Below, piece after piece: positions 32,501-54,223 of a stretch of 64,000 nucleotides of DNA (within the stretch, counting starts at the first letter, position 1; each line of letters begins with the position of its first letter). Source of the stretch: Botryllus schlosseri (Eukaryota); the NCBI GenBank assembly GCA_051294905.1, contig CM119372.1, positions 19,408,001-19,472,000 on the forward strand. The letters are read 5' to 3'. The translations under genes and the position numbers were made by a program. The notes beneath the pieces were generated by a model. That model saw only the letters and a list, made by a program, of their open reading frames with translations. It was not told the DNA's origin and made no database searches.

Positions 32501-32927
32501 GGTGTCCGGTCAATACCGAGAAAACCATTACCGAGAATGCCATTACCAAGAATGGACACCACCGACAATGGACATTACCGAGAATGGACACCACAGAGAA
32601 TGGACATTACCGAGAATGGACACCACCGAGAATGAACATCACCGAGAATGCAATATATGCAATGCAGGCATGTTATGCATATGAACAGGTCGTGTGTGTG
32701 CACCACGGCGTTGTCACATTCGGTATCGATGCTCAGGTATAAATTTGTCGACAAGGTCAGTCCCAGTAAGCTATATTCTTGACATTGTCCATTCTCGGTA
32801 ATGTCCGTTCGCGGCGATATCGTTTCTCGGTAATGACCATTCTCGGAAATGTCAATTCTCGGTAATGTCCATTCTCGGTAAGGGCATTCTCGGTAATGTC
32901 CATTCTCGGTAATGGTTTTCTCGGTAA
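32501..32927. repeat. Inverted arrays of a 15-bp unit (ccgagaatggacatta-like); fold-back element
   Basis: Units on + at 32515-32650 and reverse-complement units at 32785-32927. Confidence 0.75.
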
Positions 32928-32939
32928 TAGTATAGATTA

Positions 32940-33269: not shown

Positions 33270-33890
33270 GTAAGTGTTACGACACAGTCAAAACCAATGT
33301 GATTTTTACGACTACGCAACTGCTCCCTTCAACGCGCAAAGACGTACTTTCTGCACTTCAACAAAGTAATTTAGTGTACGAATAAAAGTGCCACTGTGAT
33401 TGTGGCTACGTGTGCAGGAACGCATAAACCAGCATGCCCCTAGATTTATCAGAACACGTGCATCACGCTCGGTGAAAAGCTCGCCCTAAACTCATCCACT
33501 TAAGCTTGATGCTGACCGATCAAAGGCCATTAATTCTGCAATCGGCAAACATATGTTGAATAATCCGATTTGTGCGAATAATTATCGAGACGACAAATTT
33601 CGCGTTATTGAGAGGGGCCGCTCACACTTCCGCTTGTGTGCCTTGGAGTCGATTTTTATCAAAATACACCAGCCGAAACTCTGTCAACAAAAGGAGTTCG
33701 TGTACCATCTGGGAATAGTGCATTGAACGCTCTCCCCCGAGATTTCCCTGCCTCTCTCATTCGAAATTTCATGCTGGTGACGTCATATTTTGTGATACGA
33801 TTGTTGATATACAATGTTCTTTCCAATTCTCTACTAGTTGCTGACGATTACCACTGACGAGTGTCAGCCGAAAATGTTCGGGTTCATTTC
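33270..33890 (+). mobile_element. Penelope-like element 3' fragment (GIY-YIG endonuclease remnant)
   Basis: SNLVYE*KCHCDCGYV, RINQH, SAIGKHMLNNPICANNY...FRVIERGRSHFRLCALESIFIKIHQPKLCQQKEFVY, stop at 33724-33726. Confidence 0.75.
33850..33885 (+). ncRNA. Degenerate minimal hammerhead ribozyme candidate
   Basis: acca-CTGACGA-gtgtcagcc-GAAA-atgttc-gggt in the Penelope 3' region; core boxes present, stems weak. Confidence 0.35.
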
Positions 33891-33986
33891 AATATGAATA
33901 TACTATTCAATATGTAGCATTATATAAATGCACAACAAAAGCATAGAATAAATGTATGTGAACGAAAAGCGGGGAGATAGAGTTGC

Positions 33987-36900
33987 CTAGAATCGCTCTC
34001 CGTCAAATGCTTTGTTATCAAACTCCTCACTAAAGGAATCTTCGACTTTTTTACTCATATTCTTACAAATGGGTTTTGCCTGGCCTATTAGTTGTTCCAG
34101 GAACATCATACCGATACAAGCACCAAGTGAAAATATAGCGGTAAAAACAATCATGGCGTTTGTTCGATCGTAAGTCAAATCAGCTTTCTCGAAGAGGTAC
34201 GATACAAATATCATTAGCGTATATATTACCATAGAACCGCATAAATATAAGATCTGTTTAATTGGGGACGGGTGCACATAGGTTTTCGAACCTCTGCCAG
34301 AATCATCACTCATGGTTTCGGGCTTCAAGCATAATTGGATTCGTATGAATATGTACAGCAAAAACCACGACAAAATCGCTTGTGGATAAATTTGGCAAGG
34401 TATAAAAATCATGTCCAGCATCCTTGAAAACCCGCTGACACCTTCTCTGCCAGCAACTATTGTTGCACATAGTGCTATCACGCTCGACAGAAACAGGATC
34501 GGTGGTAATACCCGGAACCAAGCGGAAATCTTTTTCCAGAATGGAAGATTAAATATCTGCGATTGAAATCAGATGATCGATGATCAGCAGAACAAAACAG
34601 TGTCACTGTATTATTACGTTCTGTACCTGAGTGAAAGCAAAAATAAATCCGAATCCAAAAGTGAATATCGGCCATAAATCGCTCCTGCTTGGCAATTGTG
34701 GGTCTCCCGTTTGAATAGCGATTGTGGTCGCATGGAAGAACACCCAGCACTCATTCAGGAGCCGCCAATATCTTCAAAATATCATAGATACATCCGATTA
34801 CAGAATGCATATCATAATACGTATCATATACCACCTGTTCAGATGTATTTCTGTAAAAGCAAGACTGCCTTGTAGTAGCACGATGGCTGTATGAAAAAAT
34901 CCAAGTGTATGACCCCAAGTATTTTCCATCGGATGGTACCAGAAGGTATAGATGCACGCCCAGGCGAATGCATACCCGTGATATCTAATTGTGGAAAAGT
35001 TATTATAACAGTGCGATGATCTACATGTCTATAAGCCTACCATACTTTCTAACTAGCTGGAGAGGCCCGGGATTCAATCGCAGTTTATTTGTGATTGTTC
35101 CTGTAGATTCTTCATTAGGCCACATCAACACCAAGCCCCGGTTTCTATACTCGATAAGTAGGATGAAGCATATCATCATGATGACAGATGCCTTAAAATA
35201 GAACTGTCAATGCCATAGTTCGAGCTCTATACTACAAGTAGTGAGCATAGCGAAATGAACCTGAGAGCTGGACATGGCGACGTCTTGAGCAGTAGCGTCA
35301 TACGTTGTGTGGGTTTGGACAAGATGTAGCACGTGGAATATTCCATTGACGAACAGCATTCCCCAGTTGAACCATCTCAATTCCGTGCTGAATTATGAAG
35401 ATAAACATCTCGATAGTTTTGTTATGCTCCTGTATTGAGGCGGTTTATACCATAACTGTTGAGTCGGAAGCAGAGTATCGAGTAGGAAGTCAGGAATCGG
35501 GACATTTCAGGTCACTTGAGAGTCCCACTTCTCAATTTGTGCTAGTCAAGAGTCGGGCTGGGATTCACGAAATTAGGAGGCATCGGAATTTTTGGTCCTG
35601 GAACGTTTTGAGCAGGAGTCGGAGTCGTTGAGATAATTAATAAAGAGTAGCGGCAGAATGCCGCCGATTCCTATTGATAACACCATGAACTCACTTGCCA
35701 AACATATACTTTGTAGCAGTTGTGTTGCAAGACCAAATATCAAGTTAATGATTGGTAACGCGGAAGGCGTGACTTATCAATAATGTTTCCTATCCAAATA
35801 TTTTCCAGTTATTGAATAAATATAGTCCAAAATATTAAAGCGCAAAGTACGGACATGTATATTTTGTAGTATTTTCGCTACTATCTTCTCATTTTAACCA
35901 ATGTTGGGATCAAGGCACTGCCTTCGAGTCACGAGTCCTTTCGAGTGATTGCACATTTTGAGTCGACTCAAGTCAAGTCAATCGATTTTCGAAGGTGACT
36001 CGAGTCAAGTCAAGTCACTCTATTTTTGGAGGTGACTCGAGTCAAGTCGAGTCAAGTCAAGTCAAGTCACTAGTCAGTCACAATTCAAGTCAAGTTGCTT
36101 TTTCGAAGTACGAGGCATGATTACGCCACTGTATTGTGCTAGCTTTGTGTGAAATTCAGATTGAGTGGTCATTGATTCTGAAGCGATGAACGAATATATA
36201 GTTAAATATACACGCAAGAAAGTGCTGCCTCGCTCACATATACGTACAATTGTTGCATTGCCTTATTCTATATAGTTACCAGCCAAAATAGAGAATAGAG
36301 AAACAAATTGATTAAGGTGCAATGCATTACCCATTTATCCATATTGACATGATACAATTCGAGTCTGCGCCAATGGTTGAGAAGTATATAGACTATATAT
36401 ATTCGAATTCATTTTCAATAAAACAAGAGGTTTGGTTGAGATAAGAACAGAGATAAGAAAAATATATTTTGCAATTAAATTACTTACTACTTGTTCACGA
36501 CAACGTAGGCTGTAAGCTTCGATCACTTCGTTTGTGGTCAATTAATTTGTGAGAGAACAATGGAGGCTCAGCAAAACGCACGATCATTGAATGATTGGTC
36601 GCTCTCACTGGTTACACTAGCGTTTCGCAAACAATCCGAACATATGCAAGATACATTGATTTTATCGACACCGATTACTTGATTGTATGATTCTTCCATT
36701 GCAGACAAAATTAATTTTCAAAAATTCTTTTTCCATGTTTTATCAATCCTCTAGGTATATCGGCCTCTCGCATAACAACAACAACAACAACAACAACAAC
36801 ACAAACAACAACAACAACAAGGCTGATAACGTACGTCCACTTATATACCGACCTGTATGGATCGTAATTTCCGGCATCTCGCTGTTGAGTTACAGAAAGT

Positions 36901-38196
36901 TGTGCACGATAAATAAGTCCCCATATGAAAATCTGATGAAGGGAATACAATAACCAAACCACTGCCCGCGTGGTAGCGGTCACCTCGTTCGGCGGTAGCT
37001 TCCAGTAATACCAAGTAGAAGTACAATCCTCCCCGCTACGTCCTGGTCAAAATGGTAGGATATCAAATATAGTGAAGCAGTCGGTATTGCTACTCGAGTA
37101 CAAGTACAAGCAAGCCGTAAATGTTTACCTGATACAAAAATAAGTAGCGATTCACTAGACGTTCTAAAACTACTACTTATAAATTAAAGGTTTGAAAAGT
37201 ACTAAGTAAGCAGTTTTGAAAACTAAATTGGATCTAGATGTCACATAAATTTAGTATAGTAAATTAAAAAGTTTTTATTGCAAGATCCATATCCGTGACA
37301 ACGCAAAATGACTGATTATACTTCACTAATAAAGGGGTTATCAAAATACATATCCTGGCAACTTGATACATGAGACTATTACGCCCAGTACATATGATTA
37401 TTTCACTCAAAAGAGTGACAAACCCAACTCCAAAATTACTTTCTACTAGTGCGGAGTAGATCGACTTATTAGCTGGTCCCACTCCGATCCTGTTTCCAAT
37501 TCTCCGGTCCGGCTCCAGATAAAAATGAAAAAGTCCGGCTTGATATCCAATTCGGCTTCGGTTCATGCTGCACCCTACACGGTACGGTGGTTCCGGGAAT
37601 TTATAAATATGAATCGTTTTGTTTTTGCACTGGCTTGGTGGTTACTCGCGTGTGGTTGGTTGGTAGTTATTTAGTTACAAAAGTCATGCTTATCAATAAA
37701 GATTCTAGCCGGATCAAAAAAGTACTGATTTGGCTCCGATCCAGCTCCGGCCGTATCCGAAAAAGTACTGATCCGGTTTTGGCAAGAATTGAAAAAATCC
37801 GACCGGATATCCAATCTGGCTCCGGTCGATGCTCCGCACTACTTTCTACTTCACTGATCCGCTGTGACAACCTCACACAAAGGAGGAGCTAATGGACTCT
37901 GTCGCTGTAACATGGGATTAGTACCTGGAATTGAAGTGTCATTACATCCATATGGCTCCGACATCAGACGTTCTTGACTGTTATTAGAAGCGTTGTGAGT
38001 ATATCCTGATAGAGCTTGCCATCCCTCCAGGTTTCCTAAACAACAAGCAAATATTGACAGAGTCTACTACTATCTCAACGCGGAAAGTCATCTTCCACTT
38101 TCAAGCCTACTCACCCCACAACCACATCATGCCAAGCAGAAAAATGATAAACGTAAGTCCAGACAGTAATGCGACGACATCTTGCCTTACCGCCAT
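33987..38196 (-). CDS. Spliced gene (8 coding exons, 506 aa): uncharacterised His-rich multipass membrane protein
   Basis: Coding exons on minus: 38115-38196, 37925-38035, 36853-37042, 35261-35387, 35046-35191, 34835-34984, 34627-34771, 33987-34556. All introns are GT-AG and phase-compatible; total 1521 nt with no internal stop; in-frame TAG two codons before the ATG. Protein: MAVRQDVVALLSGLTFIIFLLGMMWLWG...WYYWKLPP...LYSLHQIFIWGLIYRAQ...FHVLHLVQTHTTYDATAQD...RKYHGYAFAWACIYTFWYHPMENTWGH...IHLNRYW...WPIFTFGFG...FDNKAFDGERF. Many hydrophobic segments. ORF-track entries 36711..36983 and 33987..34481 are parts of it. Confidence 0.9.
35899..36690 (+). mobile_element. Truncated GACTC-family element in intron 3 of the membrane-protein gene
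   Basis: Left end caatgttgggatcaaggcac with gactcgagtcaagtc arrays; internal similarity to 7776-9115; right TIR missing. Confidence 0.7.
36774..36820 (+). repeat. (CAA)n microsatellite in intron 3 of the membrane-protein gene
   Basis: Directly visible. Confidence 0.95.
37447..37841. mobile_element. hAT MITE, CCGGAT-motif family, in intron 2 of the membrane-protein gene
   Basis: TIR tagtgcggag/ctccgcacta, perfect TSD ctttctac. Confidence 0.9.
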
Positions 38197-39049
38197 TATC
38201 TAATACTTGCAAATATTATAAATATATTCTCAATATTGCCAAAGAATACCTGAAAAGGTTAGTTAAAATGCATCAAAATCCGGTTCCAGCTGAAGTCCCA
38301 CGTTGAAGTGCCGTTCGATAAATAAAAAACCGGCTTTAGCCTACAGCTAACATCTGTATAACCCTGAGCACGATTACGCAGAATAACAGCCTAAAAGCTG
38401 TACCTAACACTGCCTTGACGATAGCACTAGTCGCTTACCATGGTGCTTCAATATATCGCGGTAACAAGCGATAAAGCGGTATTGCTTGTAGTATCACCAA
38501 ATTCACCCGATTTTAACCCTCGCGTGAATTTATCTGGACAAGACTGTAATTTATCAAAATATGTCGCTTTGTAGGTACGTTATAATTTACTTGACAAATC
38601 ATTACGATATATAGTCGAATACTCTTGCAACCGACCATGTATATCGACTTGATGTATGTCGACTTGATCACTTTAGCAGCCAGTCGGCTCATTTGGGCAC
38701 TTTATCCTGCTCTTGCGTTTAGCCTATTGTTAGCAAATCAACTGAGAAACCTTTATATCTGAGGATGGTCTTATTGGCTGCAATGTCTCTGATAAAAGTA
38801 ATAATACCTTATTCTTACGTCAGTTTGCTACGGGTTTTGTTCAAAGTTAACCCAGCCATAGCTCTTATCGCTTGAAATGACAACGCACAGACGTATACAA
38901 ATGTTTTGTTTGTTCTTTCATTCGAGGAATTGTCGCTTATAAACTCCGTGGACATTTGAACCCGTACTTAAAGTTCATTAACATCAATCTTTGTGAAGCC
39001 TTTATCAGTCGTGTTACGGTCAACTTCAATTCACGCGATCTCTCATCAT

Positions 39050-51324: not shown

Positions 51325-51612
51325 GTTCAAACTGCGTCCGGGAGGAATTTCTAAAATATGCCTAAATGTCCGGAATTGTGATGGTTTGAAATGGGATCAA
51401 AAGTTTTCGTAAATCAACAGAAGCGATGTTATTTTTGGGCAGATTGATGCCACTTCAAATTTCTCTTTGCGCAGCGCGCGATTTAGAGTCACATTCATTG
51501 ATTTTGAACCACCACCCTCGCAAAACAAACAATCAAATATTTCAAAAATAACCATCATTTACTGAAATGAGTATAATTGTAATCGCAATTATAGGAGAAC
51601 GGTATATTACTG

Positions 51613-54223
51613 GAGTTGGAGCTCTTTCAATGGTAAGAAAGGCATAATGAACTGCACATACAATGATAACGGTGATCGCCTGATCAACTTCTGCAGAGAG
51701 AAGGGCCTATGCGTCTCTAGCACGTTCTATATACATCAAGAACGGCAGAAAACAACATGGACTAGCCCCGATGGCAAAACGCGAAATAAATTGGACTACA
51801 TTCTTTGTGAATCTTGGCTGAGGCAATATATGGCCGACTGCTGTACAAAAAGATATATTCAAATAAATTCAGATCATACAAATCTAGTGGCAAAAATGAA
51901 AACACCATTTACCAGACAAGAACGTTTCAGACCACGGAAATTTAATAAAGCAATAGAGATCGGGGCCCCGGACCTCGGCTATCTGAACAATACCGACTAC
52001 AAAAACAGGCTAATCGAAGATGTAGAACAATCTCTTTCAACTGACTGCCAGGGAAAGGATGTGGACAGACTATACGAAAACCTAGCACTACCGATGCAAA
52101 TGTCCACGGAGAACATACTCCCGAAATATAAAAAGGAAAAATTTGGAAACTTATGGGAAAGTGATCAATCACTGAAGGATTTGCTACAGAAACTGAAAGA
52201 CGAGGGACGGAACAATCCGGACTCTCAAAGGGCCATAACACTCCTCAGAAAGAAGATTAGAAAAAGGAAAAACTTTTTGATGAACAGGCACTCGAAAACT
52301 GAAGCTGAAAAAATAAATCTAAATGCGATAAACAGGGAAACGGCAACTCTGTTCAAAAACGCAAAGACACACGGTTGTACTCTGGGTAAAGGCAATACCG
52401 CAATTTCCTGCCAGGCGAGTAAACTGGCTGAATTCTTCAAAAACCATTTTGACGCACAAGGAAATGAGAAATCGGTTGGGATGCCAAATGACCTGGAAAA
52501 CATTCCAGATGCTGTAAAGTTGATGCAAGAAAATAGCTCCACCATCGATGAAGACCCACCAACACTCGAGGAAATTAAACGAGCTATTGAAAAGCTGAAG
52601 CGTAAGAAATCCAGTTCAGACGTACCACCGGAGATTTTGAGAGCAATGGCGTCATCCAAATTGATCATGGACAAAATTACAGAATTGTTCCAAACAATAT
52701 GGAAGATTGAAAAATTACCCCAATCATTCGGCCACAGAAAGCTAACTGCAATATGGAAGAACAAAGGAAGCAGAACCGATCCATCGACATATCGCGCTAT
52801 TCAAGTTGGAAGCGTATTCTGCAAACTGTTAATACAAATAATCATATCAAGAATAGAAGAATGGTACAACCAGCAAATTCTCGAATTCCAATGTGGTTTT
52901 AGAAAAGGGAAGGGAACCACCGACTGCATATATGTCACGAAGCAGTCTCAAATCATTGCTGAAAAAACTGATAAACAAACATATGCCTTGTTTGTCGATC
53001 TCTCCTCTGCGTTCGACCACGTCAACAGAACCTGGCTAATTCAGTCGCTACGAAATCGAATCGATGAGGAAAAGGGAACAAAAATCACCAACTTACTTGC
53101 CGCTCTATATCGATGTACAACAACCGAACTGAAAAGCCACCCTAACCTAACTTTTCCCACAAAATTTGGAGTTCGACAGGGCGGACCCGAATCCCCTATC
53201 CTCTTCAATCTTTATATGGACTATGCCGTGAGAGTCATCCTACACAGGTCGAAACTAGCCGATATCGCTTTCAGCCAGTATCATTTTCGCACACCGGACT
53301 ATGCACGAGAAAATAAAAGGAACAAGAACTACCAAGGAACCGCTATCAACATGGGCTCAGGCTATGCGGACGATCGGGAATTCTTTTTTAAGGACCAAAC
53401 TTCTCTTCAGGAAGGTCTAAAACTACTATCAGGAGTTCTTACTGAGTTTGGATTACAAATTAATGAGTCGAAAACAAAAACTATGATATTTAACCACAAT
53501 GAAAAACTGACTTACCCGACTTCAATCTGCTCTCTACATAATCATGATATTGAAAACGTGAAAACTTTCAAATACCTTGGTTGCATGATTCACTATAACG
53601 AAACGAATGTGCAGGGGATATCCGAAATCAACAATAGGGTCAGCTCGGCTCATGCAGCTTTTCAAACCTATAAATACCTGCTTCGAAACTTCAGAATTTG
53701 GATTGGTACAAGAATAAAATTCTTGAATGCCTTTGTGCGAAGTCGACTCACATATGGCTGCAGTGTATGGTCTCTTGCGGAAAATCAAAGAAGCGTCCTG
53801 GATGTCTGCTACAGACAATTTTTGCGAAAAATGGTACACGGAGGCTACACTCGAAGGGGAACCGATCACGTATTCAAAATTAGCGATCAGAATCTTCATA
53901 GAATCTGTCCCACTGAAGACCTTTCAGTATTCATTGATCACCAACAAGCTAAATTTCTTGCACACATAATTCGAAAACCTAATGACAGTGTCGTGAAGTC
54001 AATAACGTTTGAAGATGAAGGAGAACGAAAAAAGGAAGACCTTCCGCAACGCTGATGAGCAATGTCCTCAATCGAAACGACACCGACATCAGGACATTCT
54101 CAAAAGCAGCACTTTCCAGGGAAATTTAATTTATAACTTAAATCTTTGATGCTCTCTTTTTTGATGGATAGCCTACTTCCATCACCTCGGTGATGGTGCT
54201 CTAAGTATGAACGCAGACAGAGC
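51613..54223 (+). mobile_element. RTE-like LINE insertion (5'-truncated) inside a hAT non-autonomous element
   Basis: The flanks 49913-51612 and 54225-54970 join up as one continuous element when compared with the copy at 13840-16515 (reverse complement). The 3' UTR has hairpin ccatcacc-tc-ggtgatgg at 54179-54196. Boundaries are approximate. Confidence 0.8.
51647..54055 (+). CDS. Non-LTR retrotransposon ORF2 (C-terminal APE endonuclease + reverse transcriptase), RTE-like, 5'-truncated
   Basis: 802-aa ORF with endonuclease end motifs (TWTSPDG..NKLDYIL..SDH) and RT motifs QCGFRKG, FVDLSSAFD, GVRQGG.ESP.LF, YADD, FKYLG. The natural C-terminus (KKGRPSATL...SREI*) continues in another frame to about 54129. 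Confidence 0.93.
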   Translation: MNCTYNDNGDRLINFCREKGLCVSSTFYIHQERQKTTWTSPDGKTRNKLDYILCESWLRQYMADCCTKRYIQINSDHTNLVAKMKTPFTRQERFRPRKFNKAIEIGAPDLGYLNNTDYKNRLIEDVEQSLSTDCQGKDVDRLYENLALPMQMSTENILPKYKKEKFGNLWESDQSLKDLLQKLKDEGRNNPDSQRAITLLRKKIRKRKNFLMNRHSKTEAEKINLNAINRETATLFKNAKTHGCTLGKGNTAISCQASKLAEFFKNHFDAQGNEKSVGMPNDLENIPDAVKLMQENSSTIDEDPPTLEEIKRAIEKLKRKKSSSDVPPEILRAMASSKLIMDKITELFQTIWKIEKLPQSFGHRKLTAIWKNKGSRTDPSTYRAIQVGSVFCKLLIQIIISRIEEWYNQQILEFQCGFRKGKGTTDCIYVTKQSQIIAEKTDKQTYALFVDLSSAFDHVNRTWLIQSLRNRIDEEKGTKITNLLAALYRCTTTELKSHPNLTFPTKFGVRQGGPESPILFNLYMDYAVRVILHRSKLADIAFSQYHFRTPDYARENKRNKNYQGTAINMGSGYADDREFFFKDQTSLQEGLKLLSGVLTEFGLQINESKTKTMIFNHNEKLTYPTSICSLHNHDIENVKTFKYLGCMIHYNETNVQGISEINNRVSSAHAAFQTYKYLLRNFRIWIGTRIKFLNAFVRSRLTYGCSVWSLAENQRSVLDVCYRQFLRKMVHGGYTRRGTDHVFKISDQNLHRICPTEDLSVFIDHQQAKFLAHIIRKPNDSVVKSITFEDEGERKKEDLPQR

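Follow-up and report, generated by a model that had tools for sequence, protein, structure and literature searches.

Di-haem cytochromes b, which include the cytochrome b of the bc1 complex, cytochrome b561/Dcytb, the NOX/ferric reductases, MsrQ and superoxide oxidase, carry His residues at two depths on two parallel helices that are one helix apart, and in NOX-type proteins the membrane part is fused to a dehydrogenase. A spacing of 14 residues between the His of one helix is given for cytochrome b (H198/H212; PMC4807273). Another group of His-rich membrane proteins, the b5-dependent di-iron desaturases and hydroxylases, includes the fatty acid desaturases, FA2H, the sterol desaturases, CrtZ/CrtW and CarF/TMEM189. 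Fusion to cytochrome b5 is found among the desaturases. CarF is described as a family shared by bacteria and animals and linked to photo-oxidative stress, with four helices and His that are all cytoplasmic (PMC8156234). The 15-cis-zeta-carotene isomerase (Z-ISO), a member of the NnrU family, is presented as an integral-membrane haem-b protein with His ligands, a carotenoid substrate and redox control (PMC9505123). The haem channels CcsBA/CcmC display His at either face of the membrane together with an outer loop rich in Trp and Tyr, and the CREST hydrolases (PAQR and alkaline ceramidase) form a 7-helix fold with a zinc triad of SxxxH, D and HxxxH. In this paper, we describe a gene of the ascidian Botryllus schlosseri that is a member of an undescribed family of His-lined membrane proteins of marine invertebrates, protists and some bacteria.

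Gene structure and transcripts

The gene lies on the minus strand of the window, i.e. the whole 64,000-nucleotide stretch analysed (GCA_051294905.1, contig CM119372.1), whose numbering is used throughout. It consists of 8 exons with a CDS of 1521 nt, encoding 506 amino acids and a stop codon with 0 internal stops, and its seven introns are all of the GT-AG type, measuring 79, 882, 1465, 69, 61, 63 and 70 nt (introns 1-7 in minus-strand order). An earlier note on this DNA had proposed such an intact 506-aa frame from eight GT-AG exons, and it is confirmed by the gene model, the reads and homology. When four sequencing runs were compared, introns 3-7 appeared as exact CT..AC joints, spanned in run X17 by 6, 10, 7, 1 and 6 reads, respectively; a contig from run X1, which we guess to be RNA, contains exons 4-8 spliced with 0 differing letters. 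Past the stop codon, a transcript contig extends to at least 33944. The transcript data therefore bear out the last five of the proposed junctions, and introns 1-2, where the read depth is below 3, were absent among the joints listed. All seven junctions align with those of ascidian orthologues (60% identity), and the junction windows were gap-free in 33 of 35 comparisons against five ascidian homologues, the other two having one 1-residue gap each. Furthermore, the paralogue L093 has AG/GT at matching positions for all seven introns. An alternative donor of exon 3, leading to a 513-aa product, was rejected, as it differs from the donor used in the reads.

Exon 1 (38115..38196) holds the start codon and TM1, a signal-anchor, and is 95% identical in L093 with the same GT donor. 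Exon 2 (37925..38035), the junctions of which come from homology, encodes an outer or lumenal loop with the N-glycosylation sequons N42, N45 and N59, and this loop is longer in the animal version than in the bacterial one. The WYYW loop and TM2 with H100 (codon 36938-36936) are encoded by exon 3 (36853..37042), whose joint to exon 4 is present in 6 X17 reads; exon 4 (35261..35387) supplies TM3 with H149 and the outer loop with Y157/D158, and exon 5 (35046..35191) supplies TM4, the invariant R188-G189 and a cytosolic loop. The block of highest conservation is exon 6 (34835..34984), which covers TM5-TM6 with H221 (34980-34978), H236 (34935-34933), H244, Q257 and H266 (34845-34843). TM7 with E276 and H282 (34734-34732), together with TM8, falls in exon 7 (34627..34771), and the coding part of exon 8 (33987..34556) holds TM9-TM10, two extra C-terminal helices that are missing from the bacterial members, and the stop codon.

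The family and its distribution

The family comprises 879 clusters at 50% identity across animals, protists, bacteria and archaea. The earlier claim that it is uncharacterised and has bacterial members is borne out by homologue, Pfam and NCBIfam searches, and the motif string that had been given for bacterial hypothetical membrane proteins is real, being found in the bacterial members. Pfam returned nothing significant for six exon pieces or 83 members, the profiles of cytochrome b561, ferric reductase-NOX, cytochrome b (bc1) and NnrU being among those without a match at E<=0.1 in the 83; NCBIfam gave no family match for 6 members except one chance-level row, and sequences in the PDB gave no match at E<0.01. 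No description of the family was found in the literature, six locus ids included, in a search that covered few subscription journals and no supplementary files.

Two automatic labels were encountered. An ESM Atlas cluster of Chloroflexota-rich relatives bears the name 'Serine active site containing 1 family protein' (score 0.89). Identity with SERAC1 was rejected, since no alpha/beta hydrolase was hit in 83 members by Pfam and the predicted model is all-helical; no publication on this label was about the family, as judged by title or abstract. The label looks like a propagated mis-annotation, which perhaps originated from a neighbouring or fused alpha/beta hydrolase such as that in the relative P0170. 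The other lead, DUF5692 (PF18948; Atlas score 0.76), was rejected when the family profile, aligned with one DUF5692 member by hhalign, gave a probability of 0.25%.

Named matches occur in 18 invertebrate genera, and vertebrate names are absent from the listed part of the matches (120 of 322). Three IMG/VR scans and phage sequences yielded no members, and the single plasmid match is an 11.9 Mb Nonomuraea record. In a quick tree, the gene follows host phyla, with SH-aLRT values of 96 for echinoderms, 89 for molluscs and 96 for nemerteans, and the copies of animals fall together with proteins of an amoebozoan and other protists (SH-aLRT 94). A transfer of the gene from Chloroflexota-like bacteria into an early animal might explain its patchy animal distribution and the identity of about 35-46% that the B. 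schlosseri protein shows to bacterial members where the core is aligned. We consider it unlikely, since protist sequences fall between the animals and the bacteria, and a forced clade of animals with the main Chloroflexota/Deinococcales group was rejected (p-AU 0.00044) in an AU test on 33 of the 95 rows, with groups defined after a tree had been seen. The earlier suggestion of a bacterial gene domesticated in an animal is thus not supported; judging from the sequences, old eukaryotic inheritance with losses fits better than bacterial transfer into animals.

Conserved histidines and membrane architecture

The B. schlosseri protein is predicted to have 12 helices, i.e. a 10-helix family core plus the two extra C-terminal ones, with both termini cytosolic. 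It contains 12 His in all, ten of which had been singled out in the earlier note as lying in or next to hydrophobic helices. Seven of these (H100, H149, H221, H236, H244, H266 and H282) reach a conservation of 0.92-1.00 across an alignment of 209 proteins, and the remaining three are poorly kept (H146 0.34, H154 0.61 and H250 0.34). A larger set of 510 sequences (Meff 254) gave 0.96-1.00 for six of the seven, 0.93 for H149, 0.98 for E276 and 0.99 for Q257.

Topology, His depth and His clustering were computed and are coarse. According to the positive-inside count and the sequons, together with depth in the coarse models, H100, H149, H236, H244 and H282 are placed near the outer face, where the conserved Y157, D158 and Q152 and a Trp/Tyr-rich loop are also located, and H221 and H266 on the cytosolic side. 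Of the 52 coarse models, the best 4 place the outer five His 4-21 Å from one another and 18-37 Å from the inner two. The expectation that the His would cluster in 3D thus appears to hold for the outer five, the inner pair, which the coarse models do not resolve, being 12-24 Å apart. The covariation register of TM5 and TM7 sets H221 level with H266 and H236 level with H282, with TM5-TM7 pairs numbering 0 among the top 90.

The predicted model is confident and all-helical, without a clear structural relative. Foldseek found no match in PDB or BFVD at E<=0.001, and VIA-align none at Z>=8, which is not proof of a new fold. The best VIA-align rows of haem-b proteins were CcsBA (Z 7.2, rmsd 7.0), cytochrome b (6.2), 4D2 (6.0) and Dcytb (5.6), all inside the background stated for the tool; haem-b folds are interspersed with ion channels of equal Z, and the cytochrome b-type rows (Z 4.8-6.2, rmsd 3-6 Å) are equalled by unrelated channels.

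The family resembles the di-haem cytochromes b in its predicted arrangement of His, which would lie at two depths along a pair of parallel helices with one helix in between, in a likely cytosolic electron entry and in weak fold rows (Z 5-6); however, it differs from them in its 10-helix core, three further outer His, a His spacing of 15 in TM5 and 16 in TM7 rather than 14, the lack of a sequence match, and fusion to cytochrome b5 or b5 reductase instead of a NOX-type dehydrogenase. With the di-iron desaturases and hydroxylases it shares a His-rich membrane domain and, in nine relatives, an association with b5; nevertheless, five of its seven conserved His map to the outer face, and the HxxHH, HxxxHH and QxxHH boxes are absent from the B. 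schlosseri protein and occur in 1, 1 and 0 of 325 members, respectively. Z-ISO may be seen as a functional analogue, differing in its 6-7 helices, its NnrU domain and its few His. CcsBA/CcmC are alike in the distribution of His and in the outer loop, and CcsBA is the top fold row, but the rmsd of 7.0 and the background-level Z set them apart, as does the absence of cytochrome c maturation genes from the recurring neighbour clusters of the family.

Cytochrome b5 fusions, gene neighbourhoods and a proposed function

Nine divergent relatives, whose membrane domains share 25-47% identity, are fused to a cytochrome b5 domain, in which the two haem His are retained. The domain is N-terminal in seven (P0211, P0229, P0262, P0304 with two b5, P0193, P0207 and P0162) and C-terminal in two (P0223 and the P0156 cluster), both ends being cytosolic by the positive-inside count, and P0211 and P0229 carry the NAD/FAD domains of b5 reductase in addition. 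These fusions are spread over at least four parts of the tree, with P0162 sitting in the animal-containing branch (SH-aLRT 92). Six of the conserved His are kept in the four of the nine fusions that were aligned, and H149 and D158 are lost in the b5-reductase clade. The B. schlosseri protein itself has no b5 domain. A complex prediction for P0193 (b5, membrane domain and three haems; alignment not used) scored 0.01, which is evidence neither way. Of the 'metal- or haem-binding membrane enzyme or transporter' proposed earlier, the enzyme is likely to be right and the transporter less so, because of the b5 and b5-reductase fusions.

In our view, the family most probably consists of b5-fed haem/iron membrane oxidoreductases for carotenoids, quinones or oxidised lipids, to which we assign a probability of roughly 55%. 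The fusions, the His conservation, the geometry of TM5/TM7 and the CarH/crt context described below count in its favour, and the background-level folds, the H221-H266 distance and the many loci without this context count against it. Electrons would pass from NAD(P)H through cytochrome b5 reductase and cytochrome b5 to the inner site and on to the outer His cluster, and the ascidian protein would be served by free b5. The inner site, H221/H266, probably binds a haem b through both His, with R188, Q257 and E276 close by; the outer cluster (H100, H149, H236, H244 and H282, with D158 and E239) may hold a second haem with a metal or a third haem, or else a di-metal centre. Its substrate would be lipid-soluble, either an isoprenoid (a carotenoid or, for instance, a quinone) or an oxidised lipid, and the role may be defence against damage from light and oxygen. 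Whereas the gene, its expression, the family, the conservation, the fusions and the neighbourhoods are observed, the binding of haem or iron, the electron flow, the substrate class and the extension of the function to the ascidian protein are inferred. Members also occur in anaerobe-rich groups, including Clostridium, Spirochaetia, Bathyarchaeota and Kipferlia, a distribution that speaks against an oxygenase with a strict need for O2.

The occurrence in such groups, the MenA fusions at two loci, the His pairs at two depths on the parallel TM5 and TM7, and the weak folds of Dcytb, cytochrome b561, superoxide oxidase and hydrogenase cytochrome b (Z 5.1-5.6) would also suit a pure electron wire across the membrane, which would have two or three haems and would itself perform no chemistry on a substrate. 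Like cytochrome b561, MsrQ and superoxide oxidase, it would pass electrons on at the outer face, the acceptors being quinones, superoxide, metal ions or a partner enzyme. We hold this to be a rather doubtful reading, as those Z values are all within the background, and five outer His with Y157, D158, Q152 and the Trp/Tyr-rich loop exceed the need of two haems.

The bacterial neighbourhoods bear on the substrate of the proposed b5-fed oxidoreductase, as genes of the family are often neighbours of a light repressor and lie in carotenoid operons. This CarH/LitR-like MerR-B12 repressor is found near the gene at 35 of 80 genome loci, in 29 of them no more than 1.5 kb away, and at 26 of 80 metagenome loci. 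In a random sample of Chloroflexota, 7 of 28 loci have a CarH-like repressor together with a crtI-like gene, which is above the TIGR02734 cut-off in 6 of the 7; the other 21 have no CarH, crtI, crtB or photolyase within about 6 kb. At the genome level, crtI is present in 26 of 28 sampled carriers vs 85 of 272 non-carriers, with a p value (1.4e-10) that is inflated because few related clades underlie the co-occurrence. In two operons checked, a synthase, desaturase, P450 and cyclase are already present; therefore, no obvious carotenoid step is missing, and a role as lycopene cyclase was rejected on account of the separate cyclase.

Staygreen genes occur at 4 of 80 loci in one set and at 7 of 80 in the other, frequently in one gene run with an MFS exporter. 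Together with the haem channel CcsBA at the top of the fold rows, they raise the idea of a binder, transporter or detoxifier of tetrapyrroles (haem or dietary chlorophyll derivatives), in which the His would be porphyrin ligands and b5 a haem-binding module; such a protein might serve grazers and filter feeders in detoxifying chlorophyll, and the genetic basis of cyclopheophorbide-enol catabolism was stated in 2019 to be unknown (PMC6775998). This seems improbable to us: CcsBA scores no higher than background, the fusions to b5 reductase point to a supply of electrons, and a role in chlorophyll detoxification is weakened by the rarity of Staygreen, which is found in just 2 of 301 sampled Chloroflexota genomes and in 1 of 29 carriers.

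Further neighbours are DegV, DUF1295 and an alpha/beta hydrolase, the last of which is fused in P0170. These, and the His, Asp and Ser that are conserved close to the outer face, might indicate a Zn-dependent intramembrane lipid hydrolase or acyltransferase of the CREST type, which we regard as very unlikely: repeated fusions to b5 and its reductase would be useless to a hydrolase, no Pfam match was obtained in 83 members, the core has 10 helices rather than 7, and no conserved SxxxH or HxxxH lies at the invariant His, the B. schlosseri protein having its sole SxxxH at 37 in a non-conserved loop and no HxxxH.

A more specific and quite tentative version of the b5-fed oxidoreductase would be a new fold of multi-haem or haem-plus-metal enzyme, in which b5 electrons cross the bilayer to an outer site where dietary carotenoids are oxidised or remodelled, kept from early eukaryotes in tunicates, echinoderms and molluscs and used by bacteria in light-induced carotenoid operons. 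If this is true, it would be a candidate for carotenoid oxidations in tunicates, echinoderms and molluscs, for which oxidative conversions involving echinenone, astaxanthin, mytiloxanthinone and amarouciaxanthins are reported (PMC3093257).

With the b5/reductase fusions and the CarH/crt context, what was a 'hypothetical protein' acquires a concrete and cheaply testable function. Should the proposal be correct, the family would represent a new class of membrane redox enzyme, which differs from the b5-fed desaturases in that electrons from b5 reach the opposite side of the membrane, and the pigment or lipid-oxidation metabolism of ascidians, sea urchins and molluscs, in which knock-outs are feasible, may gain an enzyme from it.

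Gene structure, transcripts and local copies

The gene runs on the minus strand from 38196 to 33987, and its eight exons, whose introns are GT-AG throughout in a three-frame reading of that strand and in a scripted model, encode 506 amino acids with 12 His. When the runs X1, X17, X19 and X21 were compared, introns 3-7 were found exact in RNA reads: X17 has 6, 10, 7, 1 and 6 reads across introns 3, 4, 5, 6 and 7, respectively, X21 has 4 over intron 7 and X19 none, and spliced exons 4-8 form one X1 contig with zero mismatches. Introns 1-2 were absent among the joints listed, at a depth below 3, and are supported by gap-free alignment of ascidian homologues and identical splice positions in one paralogue. 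The intact spliced gene perceived from sequence alone in the earlier note is real. Its protein is 60% identical over the full length to Styela clava LOC120341774, with which it forms one tree group (SH-aLRT 99).

The 496-Mb Botryllus genome holds three full-length copies, a local expansion, and one partial copy, all on the same contig (G000:C2). The paralogues L093 (1114-8688 of its locus, plus strand) and L094 (943-6579, plus strand), both full length, lie about 360-385 kb from the window gene. Exon by exon, L093 is 89-98% identical to it and shares its splice sites; exon 8 shows 23 synonymous and 23 non-synonymous codon differences, none introducing a stop. L094 has diverged further (about 50-75% at the amino acid level). 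The partial copy, L092 (2189-2739 of its locus, about 19472700-19473250 of the contig, just beyond the window end), comprises only exons 4-6, which are 89-97% identical with splice sites retained; the remaining exons were not found within the 9.5 kb examined, and it is probably a duplication fragment.

Paralogue similarity reaches upstream to 38296. At 38249-38265 on the minus strand, ~53 nt upstream of the ATG, a CTAAC branch-point-like motif is followed by pyrimidines and AG, which suggests a 5' UTR intron and an unseen non-coding first exon. Dispersed repeats with many partly matching reads lie just downstream of the gene (33650-33911) and in intron 3 (35900-36110 and 36180-36680), which has an AAC microsatellite at its start (36774-36820); two 16/32-nt tandem arrays in opposite orientation lie downstream (32514-32928). 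At 51566-54052 on the plus strand, an 829-codon open frame that matches the reverse transcriptase family PF00078 (E 4.5e-32) is probably a non-LTR retrotransposon.

Extent and ancestry of the family

Exon 6 alone as query matched 322 proteins, and among the 120 matches listed were named Chloroflexota and 18 animal genera with 22 named proteins between them (ascidians, echinoderms, one hemichordate, molluscs, one brachiopod, nemerteans and one annelid), with no vertebrate or arthropod names. A profile search returned 879 family clusters at 50% identity, and further named members come from Kipferlia, Flabellula, one Bathyarchaeota archaeon, Spirochaetia, Clostridium, Acidobacteriaceae, Deinococcales and Nonomuraea; an Atlas cluster that is 56% archaeal, with Thorarchaeota commonest, is a lead only (score 0.89). 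Searches of Pfam, NCBIfam and PDB sequences gave no matching family, and no description was found in a literature search whose reach ended short of subscription journals and supplements. As far as that search reached, the family is undescribed; its probable chemistry is of a known kind.

In a 95-row tree (quick build, mixture model), the animal proteins cluster by phylum within a branch holding Flabellula and a EukProt protein (94). An unrooted 33-row tree separates the animals and all four labelled protists from 13 labelled prokaryotes (88, not starred). Grouping of the animals with the main Chloroflexota/Deinococcales clade was rejected on these 33 rows (p-AU 0.00044), the groups having been picked after tree inspection and the rows including long branches. 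The proposal of a domesticated bacterial gene, for which a phylogeny had been suggested as a check, is therefore not borne out. A second, unlabelled lineage fused to cytochrome b5 lies near crt-operon Chloroflexota in the 95-row tree, so that the family possibly entered eukaryotes more than once.

Domain fusions and bacterial gene neighbourhoods

Nine divergent relatives have a cytochrome b5 domain in which the two haem ligands are present (N-terminal in seven, C-terminal in two). Their membrane domains are 25-47% identical pairwise, and they are scattered over four or more regions of the tree, P0162 adjoining the animal-plus-Flabellula branch. The P0156 fusion is repeated among several cluster members, one partial copy being from EukProt, and P0211 and P0229 carry b5-reductase-type domains in addition. 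That b5 has been fused repeatedly, and to either end, is the best indication that the membrane domain receives electrons from it. The clade of P0211, P0229, P0206/P0304 and P0251 has Lys at the H149 equivalent and mostly Asn at D158, keeps the remaining six His, and may be a sub-family with a different outer site. The family gene is also in-frame with MenA (1,4-dihydroxy-2-naphthoate prenyltransferase) in two 657-aa fusions (L016:7998-9968 and L109:6001-7971), and P0170 joins the family domain to an alpha/beta hydrolase.

Bacterial neighbourhoods, which the earlier note had proposed to inspect, were surveyed in genomes and metagenomes. The 80 best genome loci, related to each other since they are mostly from Anaerolineae and other Chloroflexota, include a MerR-B12 CarH/LitR-like repressor in 35, named CarH-like because the scores fall under the NCBIfam CarH cut-off. 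TIGR01777 (26), CrtI-like (17), MFS (17), photolyase (16), DegV (15), DUF1295 (15), SDR (13), Rieske (11), CrtB (6) and Staygreen (4) genes also occur, and CarH, CrtI, CrtB or photolyase, singly or together, is present at 45 loci. At metagenome loci the CarH-like repressor was found in 26 of 80, and a core marker in 18 of the 35 loci of at least 6 kb. In a random Chloroflexota sample, the family gene is present in 29 of 301 genomes; CarH-like and crtI-like genes occur together at 7 of 28 loci, and no such markers lie near it in the other 21. At genome level crtI is found in 26/28 carriers vs 85/272 non-carriers, kinship being ignored. Locus L179, one of the seven, reads crtI, carH-like, family gene, SDR, MFS, DICT, photolyase, P450 and cyclase. 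In a Chloroflexota subgroup (L183-L191, L193) the protein is 420-480 aa long and bears an additional hydrophobic stretch at its N-terminus; nine of these loci have both an amidohydrolase gene and an MFS gene in common, and each of their genomes has three crtI-family matches.

A DegV-DUF1295-DUF4345-DUF1475-DUF3159(-Rieske) cassette, divergent from the CarH-like repressor, recurs upstream of the family gene (L051, L054, L055, L057, L067, L077, L079) and is a candidate for a lipid-remodelling operon induced by light and made up largely of unknown proteins. Heliorhodopsin neighbours reported in 10.1101/2021.02.16.431466 include DegV, DUF1295, AhpC and photolyase, interpreted there as photo-oxidative-stress membrane repair.

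Membrane architecture and proposed function

The AlphaFold2 models of the Styela protein (pLDDT 89, pTM 0.90) and bacterial P0119 (pLDDT 95, pTM 0.91; ten long helices) are confident predictions. Both termini are predicted to be cytosolic, because N-glycosylation sequons lie in loop 1 of the animal proteins and Lys/Arg counts alternate cleanly from loop to loop in 35 bacterial members. Conserved residues, numbered as in the Botryllus protein, are H100, H149, Y157, D158, H236, H244 and H282 on the outer face, and R188, H221, Q257, H266 and E276 on the inner side. Covariation (510 sequences, Meff 254) packs TM2-3, 2-5, 3-6, 4-5, 5-6, 6-7, 7-8, 8-9, 4-10 and 8-10, with no TM5-TM7 pairs in the top 90, and sets H221 level with H266 and H236 with H282. 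In the best 4 of 52 coarse models, built from 48 hand-picked pairs of those 90 (loop and off-register pairs excluded), five outer His are mutually 4-21 A apart, and the inner pair ranges over 12-24 A. Register and models together support two His sites on opposite membrane faces; the assignment of His pairs to cofactors is tentative.

Foldseek with the family models returned nothing at E<=0.001, and the best VIA-align matches (Z 6.2 and 7.2) are background, with haem-b proteins, cytochrome b folds among them, intermixed with ion channels. Membership in CREST, NnrU, DUF5692 or SERAC1 failed in tests, as did that in the desaturases, the family being without His boxes and having most of its conserved His on the wrong face. 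Cytochrome b has two His on one helix at a 14-residue spacing (PMC4807273), an arrangement that the equal depths predicted by covariation for H221/H266 and H236/H282 would resemble.

The family is quite probably a redox protein with haem or iron. The suggestion of a metal- or haem-binding enzyme or transporter was partly right and has independent support: the b5 and b5-reductase fusions favour an enzyme, and a transporter is less favoured. An inner bis-His haem relay is an evenly balanced prospect, and a carotenoid as substrate is doubtful. Of the rival readings, a pure electron wire is unlikely, tetrapyrrole handling improbable and a zinc hydrolase highly improbable. We slightly favour (at roughly 55%) an iron-cofactor oxidoreductase that would combine the workings of a membrane cytochrome b with those of a lipid enzyme fed by b5, in which electrons from b5 would enter the membrane domain and pass through the inner haem relay to the outer His cluster as catalytic site, where a lipid-soluble isoprenoid or oxidised lipid would be the substrate; its role would be protection against light and oxygen.
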